A DNA stretch of 36,420 nucleotides from Blastocatellia bacterium. Lineage in GTDB: Bacteria; Acidobacteriota; Blastocatellia; UBA7656. This document shows positions 3,338 through 24,413 of the stretch, one piece after another. The notes under the pieces are model-generated. The model worked only from the letters and a program-made list of their open reading frames with translations, was not told where the DNA came from and ran no database searches. The stretch lies in NCBI GenBank assembly GCA_041497455.1, contig JBGQGO010000002.1:1-36420 (forward strand), given 5' to 3'. The first letter of the stretch is position 1. Each line of letters begins with the position of its first letter. The translations under genes and the position numbers were made by a program.

Positions 3338-3952
3338 CTAGCGGCGCGGCTTTCGGCGTTTGAGTTTCTGCTTGCGGAGCAGTAGTCGCTCCAAGGTATC
3401 GAATATTTCCGGCGTCTCGAGCGCGTCGGCGAATTGCCGAACCCACGATCTAACCCGCGACAGGTCCAGGTCCTCTCGAACATTGAGGATCGTCTCGATA
3501 TCGACGATGTCTTTCGCCCTTTGAGCTACGGCCTTAGTTACGATGAGGTCTTCGGGCGTCGCTACTTTGACCGTGACCGCATGTACCACAAAGAACTCGG
3601 CCCGATCGATTAGTTCCCGCTCGAATGGCAGAGCCCCCAACGACAAATCAATTTCAACGCCGCTGTCCTCGTGCTTGAGCAGAAGCACGCGAACTCTTCT
3701 AGCGAAGGCAATCGCATCGCGCTCTCGAAGCGAAAACCCGTGCTCAACGGCAGATTCTATCAGCGCTTCCCACTGGCCGCTGTCAATCCACAGCACCGCA
3801 TCGATATCCTGAGTAAAGCGCGGCTGCGCGGCCAACGAAACACCAACCCCGCCGATTATCGCATTTGGAACGTTCTCTTCATCGAGCCACGTTACCAACG
3901 CAACCAGGGCGCCTGAGAGGGTTGACGATAAGGCATCTTCAGACACCGGCAA
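3338..3952 (-). CDS. Nucleotidyltransferase-fold protein (AbiEii/DUF2204/DUF6036-like), putative toxin-type component
   Basis: 204-aa ORF. The N-terminal IIGGVGVSLAAQPRFTQDIDAVLWID matches the hGG-x(n)-R-x-T-x-D-x-D signature of pol-beta-superfamily NTases of the AbiEii/DUF2204 type. It overlaps the upstream small ORF by 14 nt. The subfamily is not resolved. Confidence 0.6.
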   Translation of the reverse strand: MPVSEDALSSTLSGALVALVTWLDEENVPNAIIGGVGVSLAAQPRFTQDIDAVLWIDSGQWEALIESAVEHGFSLRERDAIAFARRVRVLLLKHEDSGVEIDLSLGALPFERELIDRAEFFVVHAVTVKVATPEDLIVTKAVAQRAKDIVDIETILNVREDLDLSRVRSWVRQFADALETPEIFDTLERLLLRKQKLKRRKPRR

Positions 3953-4256: not shown

Positions 4257-4673
4257 TCAATTTACGCTCTTCGCCTCGGGGATTATCATCGTGCGCCATA
4301 CGGCCTGCCATCGATCGTTCTCGCGCACGAAGACAAATATGTCGCGGCCAGTGTCGTTGAAGCGCTCACCGCCCATCTCATAAGCGATCTCGTATGAGTA
4401 GGTCGCTATCGCCGTATTCCCGAACACGTCAATCCCCGGATTGCTGATCTTGAAATCCAGAATTGCCGCTTGCTTGCAAAAGTCCTCGTAGCTCGCGACA
4501 CAGGCGTCTCTGCCTTCCGTGCGCTGGGTGAAGTCAGGATGCACCATCACGATGTCTTCGCGGAAGAAGGACGCGAGGTCTTCGGGACCGCCGGGCTTTG
4601 CCCACGCGTCGTTCATCCGCTGGACGAGTTGCCAAATCTCTTCCGTGTCTCGTGTTCCGTCAGAAGATGTCAT
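4257..4673 (-). CDS. SnoaL-like / NTF2-fold DUF4440 family protein
   Basis: 138-aa ORF. The sequence (EEIWQLVQRMNDAWAK...FFREDIVMVHP...NTAIATYSYEI...ERFNDTGRDIFVFVRENDRWQAVWRTM) has the typical layout of DUF4440/SnoaL-like NTF2 proteins. Confidence 0.7.
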   Translation of the reverse strand: MTSSDGTRDTEEIWQLVQRMNDAWAKPGGPEDLASFFREDIVMVHPDFTQRTEGRDACVASYEDFCKQAAILDFKISNPGIDVFGNTAIATYSYEIAYEMGGERFNDTGRDIFVFVRENDRWQAVWRTMIIPEAKSVN

Positions 4674-4738
4674 CTATTCACCTCTTTTCGCCTGAGCGTG
4701 GGCAAGCGCCGGTTATGTGAGCGTCAGCTTCTTACGAG

Positions 4739-4832
4739 CTTTGCGTCTTTGCGGGTCTTTGCGTCTTTGCGCGAAACGTCTCTTGCTATGGTTATTTCGC
4801 GCAAAGACGCAAAGACCCGCAAAGACGCAAAG
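4739..4832. repeat. Palindromic intergenic element, family A (CTTTGCG..CTTTGCGCGAAA arms)
   Basis: Left arm ctttgcgtctttgcgggtctttgcgtctttgcgcgaaa (4739-4776) is the reverse complement of tttcgcgcaaagacgcaaagacccgcaaagacgcaaag (4796-4832). The loop is about 19 nt. The element lies between the aguA stop and the start of the SnoaL-like gene. Confidence 0.85.
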
Positions 4833-4871
4833 AGACGCGCGAAACTGAACGACCTGGACCCCCCGACCAAC

Positions 4872-5969
4872 TCATCCGCGCCCGACTCCCGGCTGTTGCT
4901 GAGTCATACAGTGCAACGTCCCGAGACCCCAGACCATATCGACCGCGTGAATCCCAACGACTGGCCGATCGGTGATCAGCTCGCTCAAAATGCCGAGCGC
5001 CACGCGATCATTCGGATCATTGAACGTCGGCACCAGCACCGCCGAATTCGCGATGTAAAAGTTAGCATAGCTTGCCGGAAGGCGCTGTCCGTTGAACACG
5101 AGCGGCGCAGGCATTGGAATCGGAACAACCTCGAGCTTCGAGCCGTCCTCGAGCCGCATCGACTTCAAGCGATCGAAATTCTCTTCGAGCACTGCGTGGT
5201 TGTAGTCGCGCGAGTTCTCCTCGCGGCATATGACGACCGTCCTTGAATTGACGAAGCGGCACACATCATCGACGTGGCCGTGTGTGTCGTCGCCTTGAAT
5301 ACCGCGGCCCAGCCACAGCACGTTGGTTACGCCCAGGTTGTCGCCAAGCGCTGACTCGATGTCGCTACGTGAAAGACCCGGGTTCCGCGCCTGGAGGTTT
5401 TGATCGAGCAAGCACTCCTCGGTGGCGATCAATGTTCCGCGTCCGTTGACGTCGATGGCGCCGCCTTCAAGCACTACATCGCGGTTGTTTCGTTGGGCGC
5501 GAAAGATTCGGCAGCCCAGCGTTTGGGCCGCGCGTTCGGCCACGCGATCGTCTTTCTTCCAGTCGTCGTACTTCGCCCACGCGTTAAACCGGAAACGCAC
5601 GATCGCAACTTCCCGCCGCTTAGAGTCGCGCCTGACGAACATAGGACCGAAGTCGCGCGTCCAGCCTCGATTGGTTGGGAAGCGCAAGAACTCGACTTGC
5701 GTCGGGTCAACGCCAACTCGTGACAGCACACGCCGCGCTCGAGCTTCGTGAGCCTCCGAGTCGACAATGATGCGAACGATTTCGCCGGGCGCGAGCTGGC
5801 GGACTATCTCGCCGTAGACCCAGGGGATGGTTGTGAACTTGCCCGGCCAATCGGTTCGATTGTGGGGCCAGCCAATCCACGTGGCTTCGTGAGGCTCCCA
5901 CTCGGCGGGCATGCGAAAGCCCATCGAGCTTGGGCTGCTGTCCGCGGCTCGTTCAGTCTTTCGGCTCAT
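4872..5969 (-). CDS. aguA: Agmatine deiminase
   Basis: 365-aa ORF. It has N-terminal FRMPAEWEPHEATWIGWPH, DTHGHVDD and C-terminal GTLHCMTQQQP, typical of the agmatine deiminase / PAD_porph family. Its start overlaps the aguB stop by 4 nt. Confidence 0.9.
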   Translation of the reverse strand: MSRKTERAADSSPSSMGFRMPAEWEPHEATWIGWPHNRTDWPGKFTTIPWVYGEIVRQLAPGEIVRIIVDSEAHEARARRVLSRVGVDPTQVEFLRFPTNRGWTRDFGPMFVRRDSKRREVAIVRFRFNAWAKYDDWKKDDRVAERAAQTLGCRIFRAQRNNRDVVLEGGAIDVNGRGTLIATEECLLDQNLQARNPGLSRSDIESALGDNLGVTNVLWLGRGIQGDDTHGHVDDVCRFVNSRTVVICREENSRDYNHAVLEENFDRLKSMRLEDGSKLEVVPIPMPAPLVFNGQRLPASYANFYIANSAVLVPTFNDPNDRVALGILSELITDRPVVGIHAVDMVWGLGTLHCMTQQQPGVGRG

Positions 5970-6865
5970 TCTTTTTCGTCGAGAAACCGCTGTTCGATCC
6001 CAGCGTAAGCGTCAATGCGGCGGTCACGCAAAAAGGGCCAGTTGCGCCGCACTTCTTCGATGCGAGAGAGATCCACTTCGCTGATCAACACCTCTTCGCG
6101 ATCGGTCGAGCCTTCCGCGATCACCACTCCGAACGGGTCGCACAAAAACGAAGAGCCCCAGAACTCAATCCCAGCGCCGCCGTCGGAAGACTTCTCGTGA
6201 CCGACTCGATTCACCGCTGCGACATAAACTCCATTAGCGATTGAGTGCGAGCGCTGAATCGTCTGCCACGCGTTACGCTGCGCTGCGCCGTAGATTTCTT
6301 TCTCGTGCGGATGCCATCCAATCGCGGTGGGATAGAAGAGAACGTTCGCGCCTCTCAGCGCCGTGAGCCTCGCGCCTTCGGGATACCACTGGTCCCAGCA
6401 GATCAGCGTGCCGATCTTACCAACCGGCGTATCGAAAGCGCGAAATCCAAGATCGCCCGGCGTGAAGTAGAACTTCTCGTAGTAAGCGGGATCATCCGGT
6501 ATGTGCATCTTGCGATAGAGGCCAGCGACTTTGCCTTCGGTGTCGATGATGGCGGCGCTGTTGTGATAGAGCCCGGCCGCCCGGCGTTCAAAGATCGGAG
6601 CGATGACCGTGACTTTCTTCTCTCGCGCGACTCTTCCGATTGCCTCGGTCGACGGACCCGGCACAGCCTCGGCGAGATCGAACAGCGCAGCGTCTTCGCG
6701 CTGACAGAAGTACTGAGAGCGAAATAGCTCGGGCAAGCAGATGACCTCGGCGCCGAGCCCGGCCGCGTGTTCGACGAATGAGACGGCTCGGGCGAGGTTG
6801 TCATCGGAATCGGCCGACGCCGCCATCTGCACGAGGCCGACCTTGAACCTTGGAGCGCTCGACAT
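5966..6865 (-). CDS. aguB: N-carbamoylputrescine amidase (CN-hydrolase family)
   Basis: The start is placed at the ATG at 6865 (MSSAPRFKVGLVQM...). The CN-hydrolase catalytic context is present (LPELF, RKMHIP, GTLICWDQWYPE). The ORF-track extension to 7018 merely translates the family-B repeat. The gene is translationally coupled to aguA. Confidence 0.9.
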   Translation of the reverse strand: MSSAPRFKVGLVQMAASADSDDNLARAVSFVEHAAGLGAEVICLPELFRSQYFCQREDAALFDLAEAVPGPSTEAIGRVAREKKVTVIAPIFERRAAGLYHNSAAIIDTEGKVAGLYRKMHIPDDPAYYEKFYFTPGDLGFRAFDTPVGKIGTLICWDQWYPEGARLTALRGANVLFYPTAIGWHPHEKEIYGAAQRNAWQTIQRSHSIANGVYVAAVNRVGHEKSSDGGAGIEFWGSSFLCDPFGVVIAEGSTDREEVLISEVDLSRIEEVRRNWPFLRDRRIDAYAGIEQRFLDEKE

Positions 6866-6923
6866 AGCCGAAAGCTTACACAAGATCGCATTCGGCTCCA
6901 AGCTTTGATAGCGCGCGCCAAGT

Positions 6924-7016
6924 GTTCGTAGTCCGGCCTTCAGGCGGAAGTTCGTAACTCGAGGCTTAACGAGCAAAGGCAGATACAACCTGCCGCCTGA
7001 AGGCCGGACTACGAAC
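6924..7016. repeat. Palindromic intergenic element, family B (GTTCGTAGTCCGGCCTTNAGGCGG arms)
   Basis: gttcgtagtccggccttcaggcgg (6924-6947) is the reverse complement of ccgcctgaaggccggactacgaac (6993-7016). The element lies in the divergent aguB/tpx intergenic region. Confidence 0.85.
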
Positions 7017-7108
7017 AAGAAAGCGGCTTGATCACTCGCCGCCCAACCTTTAGGCTATACCTTCTGCTCGAACTACTAATGAACCTTAAAACTCAGAGGA
7101 GAAACTGA

Positions 7109-7609
7109 ATGGCAAACGTCACACTCAAAGGCAATCCGGTCAAGCTGGTCGGCAACGAAGTCAAAGTCGGCGACACCGCTCCGGATTTCAGAACACAAAA
7201 GAGCGATTTGAGCGATTACAACCTGGGCTCATCAGCCGGCAAGACCCGGATCATTCTCAGCATTCCGTCGCTTGACACTCCGGTCTGCGACGCCGAGACG
7301 AAACGCTTCAATGAAGAAGCTTCAAAGGTCCCCGGCGTGGAGATCGTTTGCATAAGCATGGACCTTCCGTTCGCGATGAAGCGATGGTGCGGCGCGGCGG
7401 GCGTGGACAAGATTACGACGGCCAGCGATCACCGCGACGGCTCGTTCGGCAAGAACTACGGAGTGTTGATTGAAGGCGGGCCGTTTGATCGCGTGCACGC
7501 GCGAGCCGTCTTTGTCGTTGGACCGGATGACAAGTTGAAGTACGTCGAATACGTCAGCGAGATCGCGAATCATCCTGATTACGACGCGGTGCTGGCGGCA
7601 GCAAAGTAA
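7109..7609 (+). CDS. tpx: Thiol peroxidase (atypical 2-Cys peroxiredoxin)
   Basis: 166-aa ORF preceded by aggag. Motifs VTLKGNPVKL, SIPSLDTPVCDAETKRFNEEA and MKRWCGA are characteristic of Tpx. Confidence 0.9.
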   Translation: MANVTLKGNPVKLVGNEVKVGDTAPDFRTQKSDLSDYNLGSSAGKTRIILSIPSLDTPVCDAETKRFNEEASKVPGVEIVCISMDLPFAMKRWCGAAGVDKITTASDHRDGSFGKNYGVLIEGGPFDRVHARAVFVVGPDDKLKYVEYVSEIANHPDYDAVLAAAK

Positions 7610-7671
7610 TGCTGGCTAGAATGAGAGCCTTCGCTCTCAGTGGATCAACCCGCAATCGTGAAGGAGAGAAA

Positions 7672-8214
7672 ATGGACAGGAAACAAATCAAGATCGCATG
7701 TCTTTTGGTCATAGCATTGTTGTGCATTGCGCCAGTCGCGCTGGCCTTCAGCACGCCGCCCGAGGTAGGCAAACCCGCTCCGGAATTCACGCTCAAGAGC
7801 AACGAAGGCAAGACGGTCAGCCTCAAGGACTACAAAGGCAAATGGGTCGTGCTGTACTTCTACCCGAAGGACTTCACTTCCGGCTGCACGATCGAAGCTC
7901 AAAACTTTAAGCGCGACCAGGCGGCCTATGATAAGGCCCACGCGGTCATCCTCGGCGTCAGCGTCGATACCGCGGAATCGCATAAGGATTTCTGCGCCAA
8001 AGAGGGACTGACCTTCAAGCTTCTGGCGGACACGGAGATGACGGTCTCCGAAGCATATGGCTCGATGATGGACCGCCCGGGCGTCAAGCTATCGGCTCGC
8101 AACACCTTCATCATCGATCCGAAGGGAAACGTCGCGAAGGTATTCATAGGCGTGAAGCCGATGCCACACAGCGAAGAGGTCCTGGCCGCGCTGGCTGAGC
8201 TGCAGAAGAAGTAG
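7672..8214 (+). CDS. Secreted/periplasmic Bcp/PrxQ-like peroxiredoxin
   Basis: The ATG at 7672 is preceded by gaaggagag. A signal-peptide-like N-terminus is present (MDRKQIKIACLLVIALLCIAPVALAFS). The AhpC/TSA motif is [22 protein letters not shown]. Confidence 0.85.
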   Translation: MDRKQIKIACLLVIALLCIAPVALAFSTPPEVGKPAPEFTLKSNEGKTVSLKDYKGKWVVLYFYPKDFTSGCTIEAQNFKRDQAAYDKAHAVILGVSVDTAESHKDFCAKEGLTFKLLADTEMTVSEAYGSMMDRPGVKLSARNTFIIDPKGNVAKVFIGVKPMPHSEEVLAALAELQKK

Positions 8215-8272
8215 GTCCGAGTTGGCCGGTTGGGGGTTCGACGCGTTTGGGGCTGTGGTTTCGACGCTAGGG

Positions 8273-8558
8273 ACAATCCCAACGGGATTGCGTCTCACAG
8301 CCCAAGGTTGTCGTACTCGGCTACCTTGGGACACGATGTCGCGACCGCCTCAACCCTGAAGGGGTTGTGGCTCGATTGATCGCGAATGACGACCAACCAA
8401 CCAAACGGTGATAGCGTTGCGTAACGGCTACCGTAAGCCGCCGCAACCCCTTTCGGGGTTGGCGCAAACGACCCACTACGCGTTGGCGTGGCGTTGTTCA
8501 CCCAGGGTAGCCGAGTACGGCAACCCTGGGCTGAGAGATGCAACCCCAGTTGGGGTTC
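8273..8558. repeat. Block of short GC-rich hairpins and an inverted pair, family C
   Basis: cccaaggttgtcgtactcggctaccttggg (8301-8330) is an inverted copy of cccagggtagccgagtacggcaaccctggg (8501-8530) with about 3 mismatches. There are also four CAA(T/C)CCC-loop-GGG(A/G)TTG mini-hairpins, near 8275-8290, 8351-8367, 8443-8462 and 8541-8558. Confidence 0.7.
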
Positions 8559-8618
8559 AACCCAAACTAACACTCAGACCGCTTTCGACAAGTCGCAGCC
8601 AGCGTGTGTCAGCGTCCT

Positions 8619-10937
8619 TCACCGGACGAGCCTGAGAAAGTAGACGCCGCGCATACCGGCTGCGACGATCCGCTCGCCCTCGCGCTGCAACGCGCAACCG
8701 AACAACCGCCCGTCTACGTGCAAAGTCGCCAGGCATTTTCCTGATCTGGCGTCCCACGCCTTGAGCGAGTTGTCGGATGAGGCGGAGACGATGATCGAGC
8801 CGTCGGCGCTGATCGCGCAGCCACGGACCGCAGATGTATGCCCAGCGAGGGAGCGCAGCTCGGCGCCTGATCTGGCGTCCCACACCTTGAGCGAGTTGTC
8901 GGATGAGGCGGAGACGATGATCGAGCCGTCGGCGCTGATCGCGCAGCCCCAGACCCCAGACGTATGCCCCGTGAGCGTGCGGACCAGCGCAGGGTCCGGG
9001 AGGTCCGGAAGTGGGTGTACGGCTTCAACGAACGGCCGGCGAAGAATGCGCGCTAGCTTCTCAACAAGCGGAGCGAACACCTCGACGTGTTGCAGGCGAC
9101 TGAGCAGCGTGGCTTCGGCTGCATCGCGATCATTACAACGATCCAGTACGTGACCTGACTGAACAAAGCTGCGCCGCAGCGTCCGCTGCGTGGGATCATC
9201 AAGCGCGATTCTCTCTGCTGCCAGGAGGTCGCCTTCCACGACGAGCGCTTTCCGCGCCAGCGTCTTCGCTGCCAGGTAACGCAGGTCCTTAACCGTAGCG
9301 ATTAACTCGTCTGCGCGGCCGGCTGAGATCAGGTGATCGGCGAGATGGTCCCATAGATAAGGCTCGTTAAGATCCAGGTCAGCCCATGGGCTCGCGCTGG
9401 CGTCAGACGCTCGGTTGCCGCTCGATGGCTGGTGAGATTCGAGAAGCGCGTTGTGTGCTGCGGCGAGACTCTCGCCTTGCTCTCCGATCAAGTAACCACG
9501 CACAACGTCATGAAGCCGTATTACGCGCCCATTCGGATCGAACCGCTGCAACAGCGAAAGCCGGTCGAGCCGCTCGCACAGTGCTTCGGTGTCGAAGTCG
9601 TCGAGCCTGCCAGTCCTTCCCCACAGTTTTGTGAGCGTGACGAGCGGAACGTCTATGTCCTCGGGGAAGACCGCCAAATCGGCGTAGCGCGCCTGTTCGT
9701 TCGGATCCAACAACTCGATCGACACGCCCAGGCACTTGCGCACTGCTTGCTCGCGAGCCTGCGGGTCGCGCGCGTCGAAGGTCGTGAGCCCGCGTTTGTC
9801 GAGCGAAGTGTTCACCCACTCAATCGCTCTGGTGAACGGTTGGTGCAGGACTTCAACTCGATGCCTCAGGGCGCGGTTGGCGAGCTCGATCAGCAAGGGC
9901 CATTCGCCCAGCCGCTTCGCAAGCTCGCGCAGATCGGTCTCGCACTCCGGTGGCAGACCGGAACCGAGCAACGCAACGGCTTCGTCTCGGCGCATCGCGT
10001 CTACATCGACTCGCTTGGAACCGCGAGGCAGCACGTCCACGAGCCGAGTCGTGATCAAACGAGCGCCGCGTCCGACGCCTTGAGTGAACGGAGTGAGGTG
10101 TACTGAATCCCACACGTCGTCGATCACCAGCAGCGCGTTGCGGTCGGCCAGCAACTCGCGCAGCCGCGCGGTAGCCGCGTTGACATCGGAAAAGCCTGGG
10201 CGCTCGCCTGTGAGTACTTCGATCAGGTCGATGACGCGGCGGGTGAGATCGCCGGGGCTCTCGCCGAGCGTCACCCAGAGGATTCCGCCATCGAAAGCGT
10301 TTTGAACGTCTTCGTCGTGACAAAGCGCTTTGGCGAGAGTCGTCTTGCCGTAGCCGCCCGCTCCTCGCAACGCCGCGGTGATCGCGACCGGATCGCCGCT
10401 CTCGCGGTCGAGCAGAAGCGAGAGCAGTTGATTGAACTCGCCGGGACGAGGAACGAAATCCGGCGGGAGTGGTTCAGCCATGAAGGGCACTCGCGGTTCT
10501 TCGCAGCGAGTCTTCAGGTCGTTGAGGAACTTCTCCAGTTGCAGCGGCTCATCCAGATCATAGAAGTGCTTCTCGCTCATCCATCGCGGCATCGAGCCGA
10601 AGTTGAGGCCGGGCGCGCCCTTGATCGGGTAGACGCACACGCCCTGCTGACGCGCGTATTGCCACTCCTTGCGGACGAACTCGGACTTCAGGGCGTTGGG
10701 TGTAATTATCAGCGCCATGAACTCGACGTGATCGAGTGCATCGGTGATCTGAAGCCACCAATCGCGACCGCCTTCCAGTGCGATGACGTCTTGCCAGAGC
10801 GAAAAGCCTTCGTTCTCGAGGCGCGCGCGCAGCTCTCCGGCGAAGCTTTTCCCATCGCTGCGAGCGTACGAGATGAAGACGCCCTCGCGCGGCTGGCTTT
10901 GTTTGGCTTTAGTCCTGTCAGGCATCGGTGGAGACAT
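8619..10937 (-). CDS. TIR-NB-ARC-WD40 STAND NTPase (candidate immune sensor/effector)
   Basis: 772-aa ORF. The N-terminal TIR is GVFISYARSDGKSFAGELRARLENEGFSLWQD...LIITPNALKSEFVRKEWQYA. NB-ARC motifs are Walker A GAGGYGKTTLA, Walker B LLVIDDVWD, RLITTR, GEWPLLIELA (GxP-like) and RLHDVV (MHD-like). The C-terminal WD40 blades are LTGHTSGVWGCAISADGSIIVSASSDNSLKVWD, LAGHTSAVRGCAISADGSIIVSASSDNSLKAWD and one degenerate blade. Confidence 0.85.
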   Translation of the reverse strand: MSPPMPDRTKAKQSQPREGVFISYARSDGKSFAGELRARLENEGFSLWQDVIALEGGRDWWLQITDALDHVEFMALIITPNALKSEFVRKEWQYARQQGVCVYPIKGAPGLNFGSMPRWMSEKHFYDLDEPLQLEKFLNDLKTRCEEPRVPFMAEPLPPDFVPRPGEFNQLLSLLLDRESGDPVAITAALRGAGGYGKTTLAKALCHDEDVQNAFDGGILWVTLGESPGDLTRRVIDLIEVLTGERPGFSDVNAATARLRELLADRNALLVIDDVWDSVHLTPFTQGVGRGARLITTRLVDVLPRGSKRVDVDAMRRDEAVALLGSGLPPECETDLRELAKRLGEWPLLIELANRALRHRVEVLHQPFTRAIEWVNTSLDKRGLTTFDARDPQAREQAVRKCLGVSIELLDPNEQARYADLAVFPEDIDVPLVTLTKLWGRTGRLDDFDTEALCERLDRLSLLQRFDPNGRVIRLHDVVRGYLIGEQGESLAAAHNALLESHQPSSGNRASDASASPWADLDLNEPYLWDHLADHLISAGRADELIATVKDLRYLAAKTLARKALVVEGDLLAAERIALDDPTQRTLRRSFVQSGHVLDRCNDRDAAEATLLSRLQHVEVFAPLVEKLARILRRPFVEAVHPLPDLPDPALVRTLTGHTSGVWGCAISADGSIIVSASSDNSLKVWDARSGAELRSLAGHTSAVRGCAISADGSIIVSASSDNSLKAWDARSGKCLATLHVDGRLFGCALQREGERIVAAGMRGVYFLRLVR
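8742..8993. repeat. Tandem 126-bp (42-codon) WD40 repeat units inside the STAND gene
   Basis: Unit 1 spans 8742-8867 and unit 2 spans 8868-8993. The first 81 nt of each unit differ at a single position (cacGcc vs cacAcc). The remaining ~45 nt are diverged. Confidence 0.9.
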
Positions 10938-11032
10938 CTGGCTCGACGCTATTGCGAAAGTTAACTAAGGCAGTATACCGATACTCCTAGCGACTTGTAC
11001 CGGCATTTCGGTAGCGATCAAGTCGGCAAGAA

Positions 11033-11146
11033 ATCCGTGCAAACCCGTCGCATCCGCTTCATCAGTGGTCTATGCGTTTGGAAGAACATGTTTGGTAGTG
11101 CCCGATAGACCACGGATAACACTGATCCGACGGATTTGCACGGATA
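11033..11146. repeat. Imperfect long inverted repeat, family E
   Basis: atccgtgcaaacccgtcg (11033-11050) pairs with cgacggatttgcacggat (11129-11146). An inner pair gtggtctat/atagaccac is also present. The element lies between the STAND gene start and the small antitoxin-like gene. Confidence 0.7.
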
Positions 11147-11254
11147 CCACATCCTGACTTCTTCTAATGTTTGTTTTCTAGAACAGAACTCGTCATCGAG
11201 GATACGCCACCATCGCGCAGGCATCCAATACGTAGATCACGATTCGCCCCGGCC

Positions 11255-11452
11255 CTACTCAAGTTCGATCTCTTCAGCCTTACTTCGAAGCACTTCTTCG
11301 GTGGATACTCCCAGGTGCGCGTACTTGCCCCGAACGCTGCGAACCAGTTCCACGCGTTGCTCCCGCTCTAGCGCTTCGAGAAGTCTTTGACGCTCTTCGG
11401 CTGTCAGCGACTTCACTTTTTCAATGATTGTTTCGACAACCGAGTTCGCCAT
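11255..11452 (-). CDS. Small antitoxin-like protein (addiction-module-component style), no adjacent toxin
   Basis: The start is placed at the ATG at 11452 (MANSVVETIIEKVKSLTAEERQRLLEALEREQ...RGKYAHLGVSTEEVLRSKAEEIELE). The LSxEERxxLLEAL helix and the C-terminal tail resemble antitoxins that usually precede PIN/other toxins. No toxin ORF follows. Confidence 0.45.
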   Translation of the reverse strand: MANSVVETIIEKVKSLTAEERQRLLEALEREQRVELVRSVRGKYAHLGVSTEEVLRSKAEEIELE

Positions 11453-11632
11453 GACCTTTGCTGATTTCGTAAGTCTTCGCCGCGATTTTACCACAAGCAA
11501 ACCGCACTGAGCTTAGCTCGGCGAGGCGTTGGCGCCAACAAGCAGAGAGCAAACGAGGCGCTTTGGAAGTTCGTTTCCTTGAGAGCCTTGTGTATAATGC
11601 GAGCACGCAGCCGCGAGCTTGAGGGACACCTT

Positions 11633-11812
11633 ATGAGCACCACAAAAGAAGAAGCAATCAACCTGATAACCCGGCTACCGGACGAAGCTAGCTGGGACGA
11701 CATCATGTACGAGATGTACGTAAAGAAGAAAATTGAGTTGGGCATCAAGGCAGCCGACGAAGGCCGCGTGGTCCCGCACGAGGAAGTAAAGAGGATGTTC
11801 TCAGTTGAATGA
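11633..11812 (+). CDS. RelB/ParD-type antitoxin-like protein
   Basis: The ATG at 11633 gives MSTTKEEAINLITRLPDEASWDDIMYEMYVKKKIELGIKAADEGRVVPHEEVKRMFSVE. The LPDExxxDDIMYxxYV...GxxDxxxGRVxxHEEVKR pattern is common in antitoxins paired with RelE/ParE toxins. A perfect TATAAT lies at 11593-11598. The stop overlaps the ATG of the toxin remnant. Confidence 0.6.
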   Translation: MSTTKEEAINLITRLPDEASWDDIMYEMYVKKKIELGIKAADEGRVVPHEEVKRMFSVE

Positions 11813-12087
11813 AGCTCTTCTGGGCCGAGTCCTTTAAGTCTTTGCGGACCTTGGCGTCTTTGCGCGAAACCCTCTAACGCGATGTTAGACATTGAGGAAG
11901 CAGTGTTTCGCGCAAAGACGCCAAGGTCCGCGAAGACGCAAAGCTCTAAGAGAATGTGAGAGAAACATCTATCGCAGCATACCGCATCATCTACCGAATC
12001 GTTGGCGAGCGAGTCGATGTGCTCGCGGTCATCCACGGCAGCCGAGATCTCTGGGGCCAAGAACCCAAGCCTTGGGAGATCGCGTAG
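11809..12087 (+). pseudogene. RelE/ParE-family toxin disrupted by a family-A palindromic element
   Basis: The ATG at 11809 (ATGA overlap with the antitoxin stop) encodes MKLFWAESFK and then runs straight into the repeat, with a stop at about 11875. A different frame downstream encodes ETSIAAYRIIYRIVGERVDVLAVIHGSRDLWGQEPKPWEIA* (stop 12085-12087), a typical RelE/ParE C-terminus. The central ~45 codons are missing. Confidence 0.6.
11838..11943. repeat. Palindromic element, family A (second copy)
   Basis: gtctttgcggaccttggcgtctttgcgcgaaac (11838-11870) pairs with gtttcgcgcaaagacgccaaggtccgcgaagacgcaaag (11905-11943). The arm motif is the same as at 4739-4832. Confidence 0.85.
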
Positions 12088-12095
12088 GCGCCGGC

Positions 12096-15000
12096 TCAGA
12101 GCGTGAGAGCTGGAAGGCCTGCCTTGGCTAGCTGCTCATTGAGCGCCTTTACGTCCTTGTCTTTCAGTTCACTCCAACGCGACAACACTCCGGCAAGCGC
12201 CTGTTGCGCCTGCTCGGACGCGGCGATTGCCTGAGTCGTTGGCGTCACGTCGGCCCCTTCGACTAATCCCATAAGTCCCAGTAGCTCGCCGCTCACTCGC
12301 GAGAGGCTTGGCTCGCTCGATCCGCCGGCCGCGCCACCGCCGCCTCCGCGACCGCCGCCCGCTCCTTCAAGCGCAGCAGCTTTTCTCTCTAGCGCGGTGA
12401 TCGCATCCGCCGGCGCGCCTGCTCGATCACGCAAGCTCCGGAGTTGCGTTCTGAGCTTGCGAACTTGCTCGATCGCTTCGCGAGCTTGCTTCATCCCGTC
12501 ATAACATCGCATCGCAATCGCATGCTGCTGAGCCAGGCCGTCCGGCGGAGTCTTCACCCGAGGATCCATCTTCACCGTCAGCGGCTGTGCGTAGCTTCGA
12601 CCGTTCACCGTCAGCCTCACGGTGTAGTTGCCTGGCAGCACCCACGGCCCGAGCGGATGACGCTCGGTGTCGCCATAGATCGCCGCGATGGGAAACTGGG
12701 CCGGCGAACCCTCGGGACGCGGATAGTGCAGGTTCCACACAAAGCGTTGCATGCCCGCTTTAGTCGAGAGGATTTGCGATGGGCGAATCCAGTAGGTCGG
12801 GATGTTGACTTCCTTTCCGATCGCCTCGATGTCGTCCCGCTTATCGGCGCTCGAAAAACGAGCCACCAGTTTGTTCGATGAGTCGGATATCTCGAGCACG
12901 ACCGGACTACCTGCCGCCGACTTCAGATAGTAGTTTAAGATCGCGCCGTCGGGTGGGTTCTTGCCTGCGGGTTCTTCAGGAGGCAGCGGCGTGTCGGTGT
13001 TCATATTCCACCGAACGCGATAAGCCAGTTGCGGCTTGAAGAGGAAGGCTTCCGCCGCGGCGACCTGTTCGCTGATCTGCCGAAGTACCGTGATGTCATC
13101 GAGTATCCAGAACGACCGGCCGTGGGTTCCGACTACTATGTCATCGTCTTTGATCACCAAGTCGCGAATGGAGCTTGCGGGCATGTTCAGTCGCAGCGGC
13201 TGCCAGTTGTCGCCGTCGTTGAATGAGACATAGACGGCTCGCTCGCTTCCGCAGAAGAGCAGCCCGCGCCGGACTGGATCCTCGCGCACGACGTTTATTG
13301 GTCCGCTGTCACCGAGACCATTCACGATCTCCTTCCACGTCTTGCCGCCGTCGTGAGTGCGATAGATGTGCGGCCGTTGATCGTCGAGCCGGATTCGATT
13401 CACCGCAGCGTAAGCCGTGTTTGCGTCGAATCGGCCGGCGTCCATGATCGAGATCTTGCTCCACGATGTTATTCCGGGCGGAGTCACGTTGCTCCAGCTC
13501 TTGCCGCTATCGCGAGTGATGTGAATCAAGCCGTCGTCGGTTCCGGCCCAGATCACGTTCACGTCCTTGTAGGAAGGCGCGACGGTGTAGATGACTCCGC
13601 GCCGCGGCTGCTTAGCCATCTCAGGCGTGCGGTAGACGCCGATGCTTTCGGGAACGTCAGGTTGTTCCCGCGAGAGATCAGGGCTGATGATGTCCCAACT
13701 GTTTCCGCCGCTGGTCGTTTTGAACAGCACGTTGCCAGCGAAGTAGAGAACGCGCGGATCGACTGGCGAGAAGATCACCGGCGCAGTGCGTAGGAAACGA
13801 TACTTGCCGCTGCGAGTCCCTTCGGGCGAGATGTTCTGCACTTGACCGGTGCTCCAATCGAAGCGAGTGATCTTGCCGCCGTAGATGATGTTCGGGTTCA
13901 GCGGATCAGGCGCGACGTAGCCGTATTCTTCAACGCCGACCGGATGCCACTCGCGAAACGTGATCTGGCCGTCGTTGCCTCGGCTCGCGATTCCAACAGA
14001 GCCGCTCTCTTGTTGTCCGCCGTAAATCCAATAAGGAAATCGGTTGTCGGTGATGACGTGATAGAACTGAGCGGTCGGCTGGTTGTACCACGAGCTCCAG
14101 GTTTGTCCGCCGTTGACGGTGACGATCGCGCCCTGATCGCTTGCGAGCAGGATGATCCGCGGGTTGTCCGGGTTGATCCAGACGGTGTGATAGTCATCTC
14201 CACCGGGCGCTCCGCGAAACCCAGTCCAGGTTTGTCCCGCATCGGTCGAACGCCAGGTCACGACGTTGGCGCTGTAAACGATATCGGGGTTCTTCGGATC
14301 GACCTTCACTTCGGCGAAGTCGCTGCCTCGCCCCCAGGGCCGGGGATCGGTGCTCACGCGCATCCAGCCCTCGCCCGCGTCGTCCGATCGGTAGACTCCT
14401 CCGAGTTGCGGAGAAGCATCAACCGTCGCGTACATCCGCTTCGGGTCGCTTGGCGCAACGCAGAAGCCGATTCGTCCTAAGCCTTGTTCGAAGGTCGGGA
14501 GCCCTTTCGTAAGCTTTCGCCATGTGGCGCCGCCGTCAGTTGACTTGAAGAGTCCGCTTTCCGGTCCTTGCCACGCGCCGTTCTCCCACGGGCCTTGCCG
14601 CCCGGCCCACAGATCAGCGTAGACGGTCTGCGAGTTCGAAGGATCGAATGCGAGCGCGATCGCTCCGGTGTTTTCGTCTTTGTAGAGGACCTTCTGAAAA
14701 GTCTCGCCGCCATCGGTCGAGCGAAACACGCCGCGTTCTTCATTAGGTCCGTAAGGATGCCCGAGCACGGCTACGAACAGGCGATTCGCATCGCGCGGAT
14801 CGACTATGATTGCGCCGATCTGTTGACCGTCACGCAGGCCGAGATGCTTCCACGTTTTTCCGGCATCGGTCGACTTGTACATGCCGTCGCCGGTCGCGAG
14901 ATCAGGCCGCTGCAAGCCTTCGCCGCAACCGACGTAGACGATCTCAGGATTGGATGGAGCGACCGCAAGCGCGCCTATGGAACCAGTCGGCTGATCATCA

Positions 15001-16044: not shown

Positions 16045-16446
16045 TTAGTCCGACGTTACCGCCATTTCGAGCGGCGCTTCGAGCTTAAGGTTGATGAGCT
16101 GATTCAACGACACGCTCTGTTGCGCGGCCTCGATCGCAAGATAGCGGTGCAAGTAACCCGGCATTCGCACGTTGAGCCGGCCGCTGAACGAACGTTTGCC
16201 GAGCGGCTGCGGTATCGGCTCTTTGGACGCGGCCATGTCCTTCAAGACCACCTTGACTACCTGCTGAATTGAACGCAGCGCAGCCTCCTGCGAATCGCCG
16301 TGGGCTGCAAGTGACGGGAACTCGGCCACCCGCGCGACATAGGCCTCGTCGTCTTCCGACCAGCCGACCGTGTACAGATAGTGTTCTGCCGCCGGGCGCG
16401 AGCGCCTGTCCGGCTTGTTGCGTGCGGTTGTGATCTTTTTTTTCAT
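16045..16446 (-). CDS. hicB: HicB-family antitoxin (UPF0150-type N-domain plus RHH/Arc-like C-domain)
   Basis: 133-aa ORF. YLYTVGWSEDDEAYVARVAEFPSLAAHGDSQEAALRSIQQVVKVVL is HicB-like. The C-terminal FSGRLNVRMPGYLHRYLAIEAAQQSVSLNQLI is the ribbon-helix-helix module found in many HicB antitoxins. Confidence 0.8.
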   Translation of the reverse strand: MKKKITTARNKPDRRSRPAAEHYLYTVGWSEDDEAYVARVAEFPSLAAHGDSQEAALRSIQQVVKVVLKDMAASKEPIPQPLGKRSFSGRLNVRMPGYLHRYLAIEAAQQSVSLNQLINLKLEAPLEMAVTSD

Positions 16447-19444: not shown

Positions 19445-19711
19445 CTACTCACTCCTTATTCGGTAGGTGTAATCTGAGCCAACACGCAGGAAATATAGCG
19501 GCCCAGTACGTCCGGCGTCTCGGGCGCGATGACTGGCATCTATTTCATTCGTTCCCAGGAAGTAATCTCCGGTTTCAGGAATGATCGCTACGATCTCTCC
19601 GGTATGCTCTGGCTCAAGAATCGCTGCTAGTTTGTCTCGATAGATCTGCTTCGCGCGCTCGACGAACTGCTCGATTTCTTGCTGGCTCCATTGTACGGTG
19701 CTTGTTGACAT
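19445..19711 (-). CDS. Hypothetical small protein
   Basis: 88-aa ORF with a protein-like sequence (EIEQFVERAKQIYRDKLAAILEPEHTGEIVAIIPETGDYFLGTNEIDASHRARDAG...YFLRVG). It is not overlapped by a better ORF. No family is assigned. Confidence 0.5.
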   Translation of the reverse strand: MSTSTVQWSQQEIEQFVERAKQIYRDKLAAILEPEHTGEIVAIIPETGDYFLGTNEIDASHRARDAGRTGPLYFLRVGSDYTYRIRSE

Positions 19712-19806
19712 CTGTGCGAATGTTAGCCCGCGGCGAGCTAAATAACAACAAACTTCACGATTGCTCGTCGCGCGCTCGCGGACTACCGCGAGCGCGCCTC
19801 AGGGAA

Positions 19807-21864
19807 CTATTTCTGCGAAGTGGCCGCGTCCACCGCACCACCCTTGCCTCTCCTGCTGTGCTTGTCGAACCACGCCATCAGATAAAGCTGCTGTAGCAAC
19901 TGATGCGATGGCCGGCGCCAGCCGTGATACTCATCCGGCATTCGCACCAGGAGCGTCTCCTTCTTCAGAATCTTCAACGCGCGATAGAACTCTTCGCTCT
20001 GCCGGATCGGCGTTCGCAAGTCAGCCTCCCCGGTCATCACCATCGTCGGCGTCTTTACGTTAGCGACATAGTGCAGCGGCGAACGCACCGCGTACTGCAT
20101 CGGGTCTTCCCACGGATACTTTTCGAACTGGTTGTACCAGTTCGGGCCGTCCGTAGTCCCGACGAACGAATGCCAGTTGATCACCGGCCTCATCGAAACT
20201 GCAGCGGCAAAGCGATCCGTGTGACCGACTATCCACGCCGTCAACACGCCGCCGCCGCTGCCACCGCAAACGAACAGGTTCTTGTCGTCTATCCAACCTT
20301 TCGCCACGGCCGCATCGACGCCAGCCATCAAATCGTCGTAGTCCTTGCCCGGATACGAATACTGAATCCCGTTGACGAAGTCCTGGCCGTAGCCGGTCGA
20401 GCCTCGGGGATTGAGGAACAACACTCCGTAGCCGTTCGCCGCAAAGTTCTGGAACGACCAACTGAATGCCACCGAATACATCGACCACGGCCCGCCGTGA
20501 ATCCACAACACCATCGGATACTTCTTAGCCGGATCGAAATCGGCGGGCTTGATCAACCACCCTTGCACCTTCAACCCGTCCTTGGAGTTGAACCAAAGCT
20601 CTTCAGCATCGCCCAGCTTCACGCCTGCGAGCACGTCTTCGTTGACGTCCACGAGGTGCTTCATCTTTGCCGCGTCCTTCACGTTGAAGGTCACCAGCGT
20701 GCCGGGCTCTTTAAAGCTCGACCGGACCGCCGCGACCTGTCCGTTGTTGGCCATCGAGTAGCCTTCAAGGACGTGAACGCCATCGGTGATCTTTCGAACT
20801 TTTCCATCAACCGGCGCGAAGTAGATATGCGATGAGCCCGACTCTTCCATGTCGTAATACACGCCCGATCCATCGGACGCCCATCGGATGCCGCGCGGGG
20901 AGCTTGGAAGCCCGCCGGCCCAAAGCTTTTTGTTGCCTCCCGCGTTGTCCATCAGGTAGAGGCTCGCAACGTGATTGGTGTAGTTCTTCTCATCGTAGCC
21001 GGTGTACGCGATCCATCGGCCATCGGGCGAAACCTGCGGGCCGCCGTCGGGACCCTTGCGGTCGGTTAGCGGTTTGACCTCGAGAGTCTTCAGATCGACC
21101 GCGTAGATTTCGCTGTCGCCCCGCAAGTACTCGGCGTCGGGCTTTCGAATCGCCGAGACGTAGATCGTCTTTCCATCAGCGGACCATTCGGGATTGTTGT
21201 GATTGTATTTGCCCGAGGTGATCTGGCGAGGCGTTCCTCCGAGCACCGAGTCGAGCGTGTACACCTGCGTGTTGCCCATCGGCAGCGGACCTCGTCCGTC
21301 GGCCGCCCACGCTAGGCGATTGACTATGACGGCGGGTTTCGCCCACTGCGCGTTGCGCGGGCGCTCAGGCAACTTGACCGCGAGGATCGGGTCATTGTCG
21401 GGCTCGAAAGCGTTGAAGGCGATCCACTTGCTATCGGGCGACCAGTTGATCGCGGACGGCGCCTGTTCGAGATGGGTGAGTTGAGCTGCCTCGCGCGTAT
21501 CGACCCACAACACGTGGAGCTGATTCGTGCCATCGCGATCCGACATGAACGCGATGCGCTTGCCGTCCGGAGACCAGACCGGCTGACTGTCTCGCCAATT
21601 GCCGCTGGTCAATTCGCGAACGCGATTGCCATCCACGTCAACGATCCATAAGTTGCTCACGCGTTCGTCTTTGACCTTGTCGACCCACGAGCGAGTGAAC
21701 ACGATCTGCTTGCCGTCGGGAGAAATCGCGGGACCCGCGACGCTCTCCATGTTCATGAAGGTTTCTTTGTCGAGCGTGCCTTTCTTCGACTGAGCGAAGA
21801 CGCTCAAGGACAGTGAAACCAGAAACAGCCCCATCAACGTGGAGCGAAAAAGTTTTGTGATCAT
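19807..21864 (-). CDS. S9-family serine peptidase with N-terminal TolB-like beta-propeller
   Basis: The start is placed at the ATG at 21864 (MITKLFRSTLMGLFLVSLSLSVFAQ, signal peptide), preceded by aggagg. PD40-like repeats are present (SPDGKQIVF, SPDGKRIAF, SPDSKWIAF, SADGKTIYV, SPDGRWIAY). The catalytic GGSGGG nucleophile elbow, GEADLRTP and DEYHGW are in the C-terminal alpha/beta-hydrolase domain. Confidence 0.9.
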   Translation of the reverse strand: MITKLFRSTLMGLFLVSLSLSVFAQSKKGTLDKETFMNMESVAGPAISPDGKQIVFTRSWVDKVKDERVSNLWIVDVDGNRVRELTSGNWRDSQPVWSPDGKRIAFMSDRDGTNQLHVLWVDTREAAQLTHLEQAPSAINWSPDSKWIAFNAFEPDNDPILAVKLPERPRNAQWAKPAVIVNRLAWAADGRGPLPMGNTQVYTLDSVLGGTPRQITSGKYNHNNPEWSADGKTIYVSAIRKPDAEYLRGDSEIYAVDLKTLEVKPLTDRKGPDGGPQVSPDGRWIAYTGYDEKNYTNHVASLYLMDNAGGNKKLWAGGLPSSPRGIRWASDGSGVYYDMEESGSSHIYFAPVDGKVRKITDGVHVLEGYSMANNGQVAAVRSSFKEPGTLVTFNVKDAAKMKHLVDVNEDVLAGVKLGDAEELWFNSKDGLKVQGWLIKPADFDPAKKYPMVLWIHGGPWSMYSVAFSWSFQNFAANGYGVLFLNPRGSTGYGQDFVNGIQYSYPGKDYDDLMAGVDAAVAKGWIDDKNLFVCGGSGGGVLTAWIVGHTDRFAAAVSMRPVINWHSFVGTTDGPNWYNQFEKYPWEDPMQYAVRSPLHYVANVKTPTMVMTGEADLRTPIRQSEEFYRALKILKKETLLVRMPDEYHGWRRPSHQLLQQLYLMAWFDKHSRRGKGGAVDAATSQK

Positions 21865-22023: not shown

Positions 22024-22623
22024 TTATTGTCCAGCAGCCGAAAAATCCACAAGGGCGTAGATTTCGCTCAACTTGATCCTGCACGGGATTGTCACGAGTT
22101 CGATCTCACTTTCAATACCTTCGATATCAGAGCGCAACCAACTGCCATCCGCCTGCCGCACGTAATGAGTAACGTAAGGCCTGTCCTGCGCCACCAGCAG
22201 GTATTCCTCGAAGCTGTCGATTGATTGGTAGGAAAGAAACTTCTTTCCTCTGTCGTAGGCTTCAGTCGACTCGGAGAGTATCTCGACTATCAGACGCGGG
22301 TTGACCAGCACATCGAGTCCCTGGATGCTCTCAATCACAGGCTCTCCGCAGACCACCACGACGTCGGCGTAACGATAGGGCGGCGCCTTCGGCACTTTGA
22401 TCCGCATGTCCGCCGGTAACACTTCGCATCCGCGGCCCGCAAGCTTGTTCGTAAGCGATGTCGTCAGATTCCTTGCGATGCGATTACGGGTGAGAGTGCC
22501 GCCGCTCATTGTGACGACCATGCCATCGAAATACTCCCACCGCGCCTCGGAGTTCTTATCGAATTCGATGTACTCTTCCAGAGTGAATCGCTCTTTCGGA
22601 TTCGCAGCCATCTTGTCCTCCAA
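22024..22623 (-). CDS. Uma2 (DUF820) family putative endonuclease
   Basis: 199-aa ORF. FTLEEYIEFDKNSEARWEYFDGMVVTMSGGT, ...ADVVVVCG..., VEILSESTEAYDRGKKFLSYQSIDSFEEYLLV match the Uma2 restriction-endonuclease-like pattern. Confidence 0.85.
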   Translation of the reverse strand: MEDKMAANPKERFTLEEYIEFDKNSEARWEYFDGMVVTMSGGTLTRNRIARNLTTSLTNKLAGRGCEVLPADMRIKVPKAPPYRYADVVVVCGEPVIESIQGLDVLVNPRLIVEILSESTEAYDRGKKFLSYQSIDSFEEYLLVAQDRPYVTHYVRQADGSWLRSDIEGIESEIELVTIPCRIKLSEIYALVDFSAAGQ

Positions 22624-22767
22624 AATCAGAACTCAAACTTGAGTCGAGGCTTAGCGTTATGGCTAGATTCTAACACAGCGTAAGGGTTCGGGACTTCGAG
22701 AGAAGATCATTCCTCATCCGCTGCGTCGGATCGACATAGTCAGCGGTGATTCATCATCAGAAACGAC

Positions 22768-22809
22768 AATACCCTCACTAATACCCTTACGTAGAGGTAA
22801 TACCCTTAC
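22768..22809. repeat. Three direct copies of AATACCCT(C/T)AC
   Basis: Copies lie at 22768-22778, 22780-22790 and 22799-22809, about 150-185 nt upstream of the Uma2 start on the minus strand. This could be an operator/iteron-like site. Confidence 0.6.
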
Positions 22810-22888
22810 TCAAGCGCTTGCCTATTTTGATCGACGCAATCGTCTAGTAGCCATCCGTCGATGGGAGGCTTTACTCCTGCTGTGAGGC

Positions 22889-23107: not shown

Positions 23108-23173
23108 CCCTTATATTCCATCAATTAGAACCCTATTCTTATCACATCAAGCTTTCGTGATGTGATTATCTTA

Positions 23174-24223: not shown

Positions 24224-24241
24224 CCCTTCTCCTTAGAAAGA

Positions 24242-24332: not shown

Positions 24333-24413
24333 TTGTATAGGGCGTGGCGCTTCGCGTACCTACCTCGGCTCTATCAGTGTTCATTGCAAATCAGTACGAG
24401 AGAGTCTCGCTGC

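Follow-up and report, generated by a model that had tools for sequence, protein, structure and literature searches.

An Apaf-1-like TIR-NB-ARC-WD40 STAND gene with an apparently contracted sensor array in a Blastocatellia bacterium

The first 36,420 nucleotides of contig JBGQGO010000002.1 of a Blastocatellia bacterium (GenBank assembly GCA_041497455.1), here called the window, carry a gene at 8619–10937 of the reverse strand whose 772-amino-acid product joins a TIR domain, an NB-ARC module and WD40 repeats in one polypeptide. The gene belongs to an Apaf-1-like family of STAND NTPases, and its TIR head is of a probably NAD+-cleaving kind. The reading we favour, with some confidence, is that the family consists of NLR-like NADase receptors, accessory to the cell and quick to turn over, and that the copy in the window has eroded into a non-reactive allele. 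A first-pass annotation of the same DNA had put it forward as a candidate single-gene immune sensor. The architecture it described is present, but 11 of the 14 sensor repeats are gone, no known defence model is matched by the whole protein, and the immediate flanks do not support a defence-island setting. The window gene is probably an ordinary, disabled member of a large and already catalogued family, and no new kind of immune sensor. What is new here is descriptive: the expansion of the family in Acidobacteria, a single locus whose states in relatives run from the complete gene to its deletion, and the recurrent contraction of the repeat array.

Architecture of the protein

The gene is a single uninterrupted open reading frame (ORF) of 772 codons, with nothing unusual in its G+C content relative to the flanks. 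Judging from where homologues begin, its true start is probably the ATG at 10925, equivalent to M5. The gene and its modules are as follows.

8619–10937, reverse strand: TIR-NB-ARC-WD40 STAND ORF, 772 amino acids; stop codon at 8619–8621
10488–10886, reverse strand: TIR domain, about residues 18–150 (Pfam TIR_2, matches in the PDB, confident AlphaFold 2 model)
10665–10667, reverse strand: codon of E91, candidate catalytic Glu of the TIR NADase site (translation, conservation, alignment to 8qlo)
9498–10460, reverse strand: NB-ARC module (NBD-HD1-WHD), about residues 160–480 (Pfam, motif conservation, phmmer, Foldseek)
10344–10346, reverse strand: codon of K198 in the Walker A motif GAGGYGKTTLA (G192–A202)
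Within the NB-ARC module, reverse strand: Walker B motif LLVIDDVWD (L269–D277), sensor TTR (296–298), GEWPLL (344–349) and MHD-like LHD (475–477)
8997–9497, reverse strand: all-helical HD2-like arm and linker, about residues 481–647 (secondary structure of the AlphaFold 2 model)
8622–8987, reverse strand: residual WD40 array of three units, residues 651–772 (units 1 and 2, then the native last blade, which ends in RGVYFLRLVR)
8740–8981, reverse strand: two 126-nt WD40 units, 92–95% identical, with a 64-nt exact match in common

The reading frame and the three domains that the first-pass annotation had assigned to it hold up. All three Pfam calls exceed their gathering cut-offs, with TIR_2 at residues 20–104 (E = 2e-18; 67.5 bits against a cut-off of 28), NB-ARC at residues 183–326 (E = 4.6e-18; 65.8 bits against 23.5) and WD40 at residues 651–760 (E = 4.6e-21). 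Likewise, the motifs EFVRKEW, GAGGYGKTTLA, LLVIDDVWD, RLITTR, GEWPLL and RLHD are all found where that annotation had put them. A search of a collection of 5.8 billion proteins recovered more than 1,685 significant relatives, of which the best 120 were taken for statistics; motif conservation is given for the alignment of these homologues. The whole protein was modelled with AlphaFold 2 (AF2) with a mean predicted local distance difference test score (pLDDT) of 85 and a predicted template modelling score (pTM) of 0.67.

The TIR domain has a betaA motif (VFISYARSDG), a BB-loop (EGGRDWW) and an alphaC motif (SEFVRKEW), and the family TIR profile matches TIR-SAVED, SARM1, TIR-APAZ and AbTir in the PDB. 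S85 and E91 are invariant in 120/120 homologues. The profile aligns over its full length with the solved TIR-APAZ NADase 8qlo and places E91 (‘rkEw’) on the Glu of ‘lkEi’, which we take to be the catalytic Glu of SPARTA TIR-APAZ, while alignments to SARM1 end just short of this Glu owing to a SARM1-specific insertion. The earlier proposal that the Glu of SEFVRKEW occupies the catalytic position is supported by this profile alignment and by the invariance of E91, not by structural superposition, and E91 as the NADase catalytic Glu is thus well supported but not structure-proven. The BB-loop segment EGGR aligns with EAGK of SARM1, which puts G57, invariant in the family TIR alignment, on the SARM1 BB-loop Gly. 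The profile also matched the TIR of PDB entry 9M0N, an 824-amino-acid TIR and TPR protein, but the central domain of that protein gave no match to the NB-ARC query.

The central domain is of NB-ARC and not NACHT type, as the first-pass annotation had held: the Walker A and B motifs, the TTR sensor, a GLPL-like GEWPLL and an MHD-like LHD are all present, and K198, D273, D274, T296-T297-R298 and H476 are invariant in 120/120 homologues. It is closest to Apaf-1 both by sequence (phmmer E = 1.6e-13) and by fold (Foldseek E = 1e-28). Foldseek superposes the ADP-bound Apaf-1 fragment 1z6t on the model with a template modelling (TM) score of 0.62 and a root-mean-square deviation of 4.9 over 515 columns, and its alignments to full-length Apaf-1 extend over 645–704 columns, taking in the HD2-like arm. 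Next in the list are Dark, CED-4, the plant NLRs NRC/ZAR1 and RPP1. The protein is a genuine STAND NTPase of the AP-ATPase/NB-ARC clade, a relative of the Apaf-1 and plant-NLR receptors.

Contraction of the WD40 array

The family norm is 14 WD40 units against three in the window copy, in which about 80% of the sensor is gone. Alignment with the closest relatives, at 81%, 79%, 77% and 73% identity, located the contraction: about 11 internal units of 42 residues are absent in frame, and the native last blade and the C-terminus are kept. The C-terminal WD40 blades that the first-pass annotation had counted as a third module are there, but as just three units over about 120 residues, so the three-module design is incomplete in the window copy, a loss that domain-architecture calls alone concealed. 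In the AF2 model, the WD40 part comprises 11 beta-strands in an open arc of about three blades, which, going by the model, would be unable to close a propeller.

A consensus over 1,185 canonical family units reads LxGHxxxVxGCAxSxDGxxIVSASxDxTLKVWDxxxGxERxT. The scaffold is strongly conserved across these units and positions 6, 8 and 24 are hypervariable, a pattern expected of a diversifying ligand-binding surface. Up to the deletion junction, units 1 and 2 of the window differ at unit positions 1, 6, 8 and 30, and positions 6 and 8 rank most variable in the family.

We hold with good confidence that the contraction is real. The alternative is an assembly collapse, in which a gene of about 14 near-identical units was shrunk by short-read assembly and the organism has an intact receptor. 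The similarity of the two window units and their long exact match lend themselves to this explanation, since they are unlike the units of full-length orthologues, whose longest exact match is 19–23 nt. In addition, all very short forms keep the first unit or units and the last blade, the minimal path of a collapsed loop, and highly similar WD40 arrays of NLRs come out too short in short-read assemblies (PMC12222747). We nevertheless consider a collapse unlikely. An identical STAND gene of 2,319 nt occurs in three assemblies: the window, a Joint Genome Institute (JGI) metagenome contig (L001) and a contig of an NCBI metagenome-assembled genome (L002). Elsewhere the three differ mutually by 8–35 single-nucleotide polymorphisms (SNPs) and a 97-nt insertion or deletion, so they are independent consensus sequences, and in none does a contig end at the array. 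Units that differ at hypervariable codons would leave extra k-mers and branches, and trouble of this kind in relatives shows as contigs that end right at the WD40 array (L091, L093 and L106). The arrays of the closest full-length orthologues, with about 50–62% mean nucleotide identity between units and 73–75% at most in register (72% by Tandem Repeats Finder, TRF), assemble without trouble. Real degenerative events have also struck the same locus in relatives L107 and L008, and another short form, of the P0059 type, was seen again in three samples.

The absence of SNPs within the gene among the three assemblies was considered as a sign of a selective sweep or recent transfer and discounted: the SNPs cluster at 4727–4995, and about 2.8 would be expected in the gene from the remainder. 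For the N-terminal 627 codons, the ratio of nonsynonymous to synonymous substitution rates (dN/dS) is 0.125 in a pair of long forms and 0.13–0.18 in pairs with short forms. Purifying selection on this part is strong in every pair, and any relaxation in the short forms is slight.

The same locus in related genomes

Relatives of the window organism carry the locus in states that range from full length to deletion. The full-length orthologues P0002 (contig L003) and P0001 (contig L006) lie in the same place, downstream of a Sortilin/BNR gene, and have 14 WD40 units. In L003 a CN-hydrolase/agmatine-deiminase pair stands on the other side of the STAND gene, and the L006 contig ends before that pair; a different toxin–antitoxin (TA) cassette adjoins the STAND gene in each. 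The window copy follows, with three units. In L107, a second close relative, where the locus is in the middle of a 165-kb contig, the STAND gene breaks off at about residue 253, and part of the noncoding block that lies downstream is joined to it. The resulting stub of 267 amino acids has the substitution W92G, where 119/120 relatives have Trp. L107 keeps an intact ParE and an antitoxin 98% identical to that of the window.

The series ends with L008, the closest relative, found by a scan of one genome per species anchored on the agmatine deiminase gene (PAD). Its amino acid identities to the window are 90% for Sortilin, 96% for Tpx, 88% for the CN-hydrolase and 87% for PAD. In L008 the Sortilin gene leads, by way of a conserved hairpin and a remnant of the antitoxin gene (its final ~25 nt), directly to bcp. 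The affected segment of the window is the following.

8215–11797: segment of 3,583 nt with the noncoding block, the STAND gene, hairpin I3 and both small ORFs; 9 nt stand in its place in L008

Because the tail of the antitoxin gene is still in L008, the difference goes back to a deletion of the module in this genome and not to an insertion in the window. The first-pass annotation had linked universal, syntenic conservation to a housekeeping role. Synteny holds for L003 and L006, but the gene is a stub in L107 and deleted in L008, and this mixed result favours an accessory role.

Further rearrangement around the locus is indicated by a 60-amino-acid ORF downstream of the L003 STAND gene (14019–14201), which matches the C-terminus of a 521-amino-acid ORF in L107 (5237–6802) that lies upstream of the ParE/antitoxin pair.

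Size, distribution and turnover of the family

The family is large and mostly long. Among the best 120 relatives the median length is 1,221 amino acids, and 3/120 fall below 1,000. When the TIR, NB-ARC and helical part was searched, without a word index, against 1.84 billion representatives at 50% identity, 22,231 of them matched at E 1e-3, 7,122 at 1e-10 and 2,626 at 1e-30; the top 150 all have E below 1e-119, and almost all take in the TIR as well as the NB-ARC. Where members are named, their annotation is Pyrinomonadaceae, and the closest syntenic genome is labelled Blastocatellia, the family being found mainly in Blastocatellia/Pyrinomonadaceae (Acidobacteriota). A full-length member joins a TIR head and an NB-ARC switch, by way of a helical arm, to 14 WD40 units, which are probably arranged as two seven-bladed propellers.

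Turnover is evident at several levels. Array sizes in the family run from two to about 24 units, and some genomes have tandem paralogues (L089, L098). A frameshift is found in L104, and truncations occur elsewhere in the family. Short forms with two to four units, in which the native terminal blade is always kept, are represented by the window, the L005/L111/L117 group, L007 and L096. By identity-based clustering they are scattered among long relatives and do not make up an old clade; array contraction recurs within the family. No phage-borne homologues were found, and plasmid matches reach at most 39% identity.

Individual contigs add to this picture. The longest array is in L101, where a 1,661-amino-acid ORF at 4274–9256 has about 24 WD40 units. 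In L108 (2441–7511) and L113 (4856–9926), two independent contigs, the gene is split by an insertion of about 2.5 kb, and L102 and L103, from different samples, have one frameshift in common. In L088 (8001–15324), from a 9.5-Mb genome, a distant paralogue, 57% identical, likewise converges on several consecutive AhpC/TSA peroxiredoxin genes, and a Uma2 gene lies in between. The order recalls STAND-bcp-tpx in the window (7109–10937) and could be residual synteny or a recurrent association.

A model of the receptor and the status of the short allele

By analogy with Apaf-1, plant TNLs and Avs, the WD40 propellers would keep the full-length protein ADP-bound and autoinhibited, and would recognise a trigger at a small number of hypervariable positions on their surface. 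Ligand binding would bring about nucleotide exchange and NB-ARC-driven oligomerisation into a ring or filament. The clustered TIRs would then form composite NADase sites around E91, and depletion of NAD+ or a nucleotide signal would lead to cell arrest or death. In the window copy, recombination between units probably removed about 11 internal WD40 units in frame, leaving effector and switch intact and the sensor and autoinhibitory module reduced to an open three-blade arc, in a lineage that is losing this accessory gene. Since the copies at the same locus in relatives are a stub or a deletion, the allele is taken to be non-reactive and on its way to loss; an auto-active NADase, moreover, would not be tolerated in three strains, which also argues for a non-reactive product. 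Its status as an accessory, conflict-type gene draws on variable presence, paralogue expansion, pseudogenisation and hypervariability of the sensor.

Besides the resemblance of the two window units and the known shortening of such arrays in short-read assemblies, three points weigh against the reading of the window copy as an eroded receptor allele. The short form could be maintained by selection, as its dN/dS is low and its ORF is intact and identical in three strains. The recurrence of forms with two to four units in several sub-lineages could mean that they have a function. Finally, the immune role of the family is argued from domain logic and evolutionary dynamics, with no adjacent defence system and with PADLOC matches in the TIR only.

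In another reading the 772-residue protein works as a stand-alone immune sensor and triggers its TIR NADase, either because three blades suffice for ligand recognition or because propellers are completed in trans on oligomerisation. The intact ORF, the conserved catalytic residues, the retained native C-terminal blade, purifying selection on the N-terminal part and the recurrence of short forms in several lineages and samples would all fit such a protein. We nonetheless find it quite improbable: 14 units are the norm in a family whose short forms are scattered among long relatives, the three blades are an open arc in the model, the same-locus copies in relatives are a stub or deleted, and the immediate flanks do not suggest a defence island. 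Fungal experience points the same way, as het-d/het-e alleles of WD40 NLRs with fewer than 10 repeats are non-reactive (PMC12222747). In a variant of this idea, the mini-array forms would be a functional class of their own, building propellers in trans on oligomerisation or serving full-length paralogues as partners that lack a sensor or as dominant regulators, and so giving a recombination-driven switch of on/off state or specificity; we regard this as very doubtful.

A rival view of the whole family makes it a regulatory or developmental STAND switch, like AfsR, MalT or the cell-fate control of aggregating bacteria, with the TIR as scaffold or signalling module. The NB-ARC region does match AfsR and an FxSxx-system TPR protein, inheritance is chromosomal and partly syntenic amid housekeeping genes, no homologues were found on phages and only distant ones on plasmids, and PADLOC calls no system. 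Yet no DNA-binding or other output domain exists besides the TIR, which has an invariant NADase Glu and an equally invariant BB-loop Gly. Hypervariability marks the sensor surface, and the family shows what conflict genes typically show: expansion of paralogues, frequent pseudogenisation and polymorphism for presence or absence. Published surveys also class TIR-bearing STAND clades as defence-associated (PMC13581612, PMC7159879). We regard a regulatory role as highly improbable.

Relation to known systems

The closest counterparts of the NBD-HD1-WHD-HD2 core are Apaf-1, Dark and CED-4. Apaf-1 has its modules in the same order, from the effector head through NB-ARC and the helical arm to the WD40 sensor, and the 14 WD40 units of full-length family members compare with the 7 + 8 blades of Apaf-1. 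The window protein differs in being bacterial, in having a TIR head with an NADase-type Glu instead of a CARD, and in its three WD40 units. With the plant TNLs RPP1 and ROQ1 the family has in common the TIR-NB-ARC-repeat design, in which oligomerisation is expected to assemble TIR NADase sites, and the position of the catalytic-Glu motif; RPP1 is itself among the Foldseek matches. The family sensor, however, is WD40 and not a leucine-rich repeat (LRR) with a C-JID domain, bacteria do not have the EDS1-type downstream pathway, and by sequence the window NB-ARC is nearer Apaf-1 than plant NLRs.

Among bacterial defence proteins, Avs, bNACHT and the PADLOC ‘TIR-NLR’ (Rousset et al. 2022) similarly combine effector, STAND NTPase and repeat sensor in one polypeptide, and some Avs proteins and TIR-NLR have TIR heads that deplete NAD+. 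The window protein departs from them in matching none of their models over its full length, in an NTPase of the AP-ATPase/NB-ARC clade, in a WD40 and not TPR-like sensor, and in lying, as far as its immediate flanks and the phage and plasmid searches show, outside defence islands and mobile elements. A 2025 survey of TIR systems set aside stand-alone and Avs TIRs as probable NAD+ depleters.

The class to which the window gene belongs is that of the bacterial Apaf-1-like WD40 STANDs, with WD40 propeller sensors and swappable N-terminal effectors that include TIR. The TIR/AP-ATPase/WD40 architecture has been catalogued in bacteria since the early 2000s, reportedly by Koonin & Aravind in 2002 and Leipe et al. 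in 2004. Later catalogues are those of Kaur et al. in 2020 (PMC7159879) and of a STAND survey published in Nature in 2026 (PMC13581612), where Apaf-1 orthologues that bear WD40 propellers are shown from bacteria. It is in bacteria of complex lifestyle that AP-ATPase STANDs with WD40 sensors are enriched (PMC7159879, PMC13581612). These surveys lay their emphasis on cyanobacteria and actinobacteria, whereas the expansion described here is in Blastocatellia/Pyrinomonadaceae, and the catalogued sensors are full-length, unlike the contracted one of the window. The first-pass annotation knew of no functional study of a TIR-NB-ARC-WD40 protein, and we likewise found none in open-access papers and bioRxiv preprints.

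For the repeats themselves, the fungal HNWD/HET-E NLRs offer the nearest parallel, with WD40 units of 42 amino acids, a conserved scaffold with few hypervariable surface positions, and polymorphism of repeat number through recombination between units. The two full window units, nearly identical and different at hypervariable positions, recall the HNWD type, for which more than 80% identity between the units of a gene would be expected. The units of the full-length orthologues are much more divergent, and high internal conservation is not general in the family; the fungal NTPase, moreover, is NACHT and that of the window family NB-ARC.

If the family is what we propose, soil Acidobacteria would have expanded, fast-evolving Apaf-1-like receptors that bear an NADase head, and one more phylum would enter the picture of a bacterial origin of NLR and apoptosome immunity. 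The full-length, contracted, stub and deleted alleles would then be a natural series on the gating of a TIR effector by WD40 propellers. For characterisation, the full-length syntenic orthologues P0001 and P0002 are better subjects than the window copy.

Genomic neighbourhood and defence context

The first-pass annotation saw in the flanks the kind of neighbourhood where defence genes accumulate, which is not borne out: they consist of housekeeping genes and the remains of TA modules. Next to the gene are two peroxiredoxin genes (bcp and tpx), a CN-hydrolase, an agmatine deiminase and a Sortilin/BNR protein. By these flanks the STAND locus does not look like a defence island. PADLOC matches of the protein cover residues ~3–99, the TIR, only, the validated ‘TIR-NLR’ model reaching E = 0.014, and the two small neighbouring ORFs gave no PADLOC match. 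In eight genomic contexts of family members, no adjacent defence system was seen. Genes for an AbiEii-like nucleotidyltransferase, HicB, Uma2, a SoFic-like Fic protein and an Lhr-type helicase lie in the window more than 4 kb from the STAND gene.

3338–3952: AbiEii/DUF2204-type nucleotidyltransferase (type IV TA toxin family)
16045–16446: HicB-family antitoxin
22024–22623: Uma2-family endonuclease
23174–24223: Fic protein matching the PADLOC SoFic model (E = 2.5e-38)
24414–28775: Lhr-type helicase, 1,453 amino acids, scoring 1,809 bits on the PADLOC DpdJ model

The last three make up a cluster of conflict-type genes at 22024–28775, about 11–18 kb from the STAND gene. In L007, an STM3845-family gene followed by an RVT_1 reverse transcriptase forms a retron-like pair at 19612–21437, some 7.5 kb downstream of P0079, a short STAND gene; nothing else recognisable as a defence-type system was seen near any family member examined.

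The downstream noncoding block

Between the convergent STAND and bcp genes lies a structured noncoding block.

8225–8618, no strand assigned: structured noncoding block with nested inverted repeats and CAACCCC-N4-GGGGTTG hairpins

The repeat block that had been noted beside the gene (8273–8558) is real, with inverted arms at 8284–8330 and 8501–8547, and the whole block folds as a nested hairpin of great stability (-198.6 kcal/mol, z = -8.9). Its 97-nt units, which each contain a CAACCCC-N4-GGGGTTG stem-loop, number one in L003, two in the window and L002, and three in L001. Counterparts lie in L003 (13744–13997), L004 (5302–5521), L107 (8750–8896) and L001 (12320–12820). Across species the block is 88–90% identical, whereas the adjacent coding sequence there is only ~81% identical.

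Membership of the hairpins in a dispersed repetitive extragenic palindromic (REP) family was considered and rejected: the motif occurs three times in the window, always in the block, and one stray copy was found in 1.68 Mb of other loci. Rfam at the gathering threshold returned no family for the whole window, and a permissive scan of the block gave just a sub-threshold COG2908 match (18.7 bits against 58.7). A tRNA scan of the window, for a possible integration-site marker, found none.

Antitoxins, toxin remnants and palindromes

On the upstream side of the STAND gene are small ORFs and palindromes.

11033–11145: hairpin I3, with 41-nt arms, after the PIN-like stub
11193–11240: GTG-initiated 15-codon stub (VIYVLDACAMVAYPR, then a stop codon) directly after the 81-amino-acid ORF, resembling a PIN/VapC N-terminus
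11255–11500, reverse strand: small ORF of 81 amino acids (71 in the public annotation)
11633–11812, forward strand: orphan antitoxin of 59 amino acids (core of a 77-amino-acid ORF), partner of ParE in related genomes
11832–11943, no strand assigned: I2 palindromic repeat, a copy of a dispersed intergenic repeat of ~110 nt, with the same copy at the empty site in L008
11950–12069, forward strand: ParE toxin remnant matching residues 46–85 of the L003 ParE (tblastn, 57.5% over 40 amino acids, E = 1.3e-13)

Two toxin-less antitoxin genes had been proposed here. One is a true orphan antitoxin accompanied by a ParE remnant; the other, the 81-amino-acid ORF, has no family match. The orphan antitoxin is 80% identical to the L003 gene that adjoins ParE, and the N-terminal part of the toxin has been replaced in the window by the I2 palindrome. 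The 81-amino-acid ORF was also considered as a VapB partner of the PIN gene in L006 and rejected, as tblastn found no similarity. The PIN-like appearance of the 15-codon stub is a matter of motif only and is given as a putative assignment. The window may hold two TA modules, in each of which the toxin gene is cut off next to a palindrome. Inverted repeats in the 11033–12087 region, where a long one had been noted, are real and correspond to I3 and I2.

The ~110-nt palindrome family to which I2 belongs has 42-nt arms that are 90% complementary. A further copy lies in the window at 4730–4832, and others are found in L008 (1904–2054, 3345–3437 and 5622–5726) and L002 (9186–9287).

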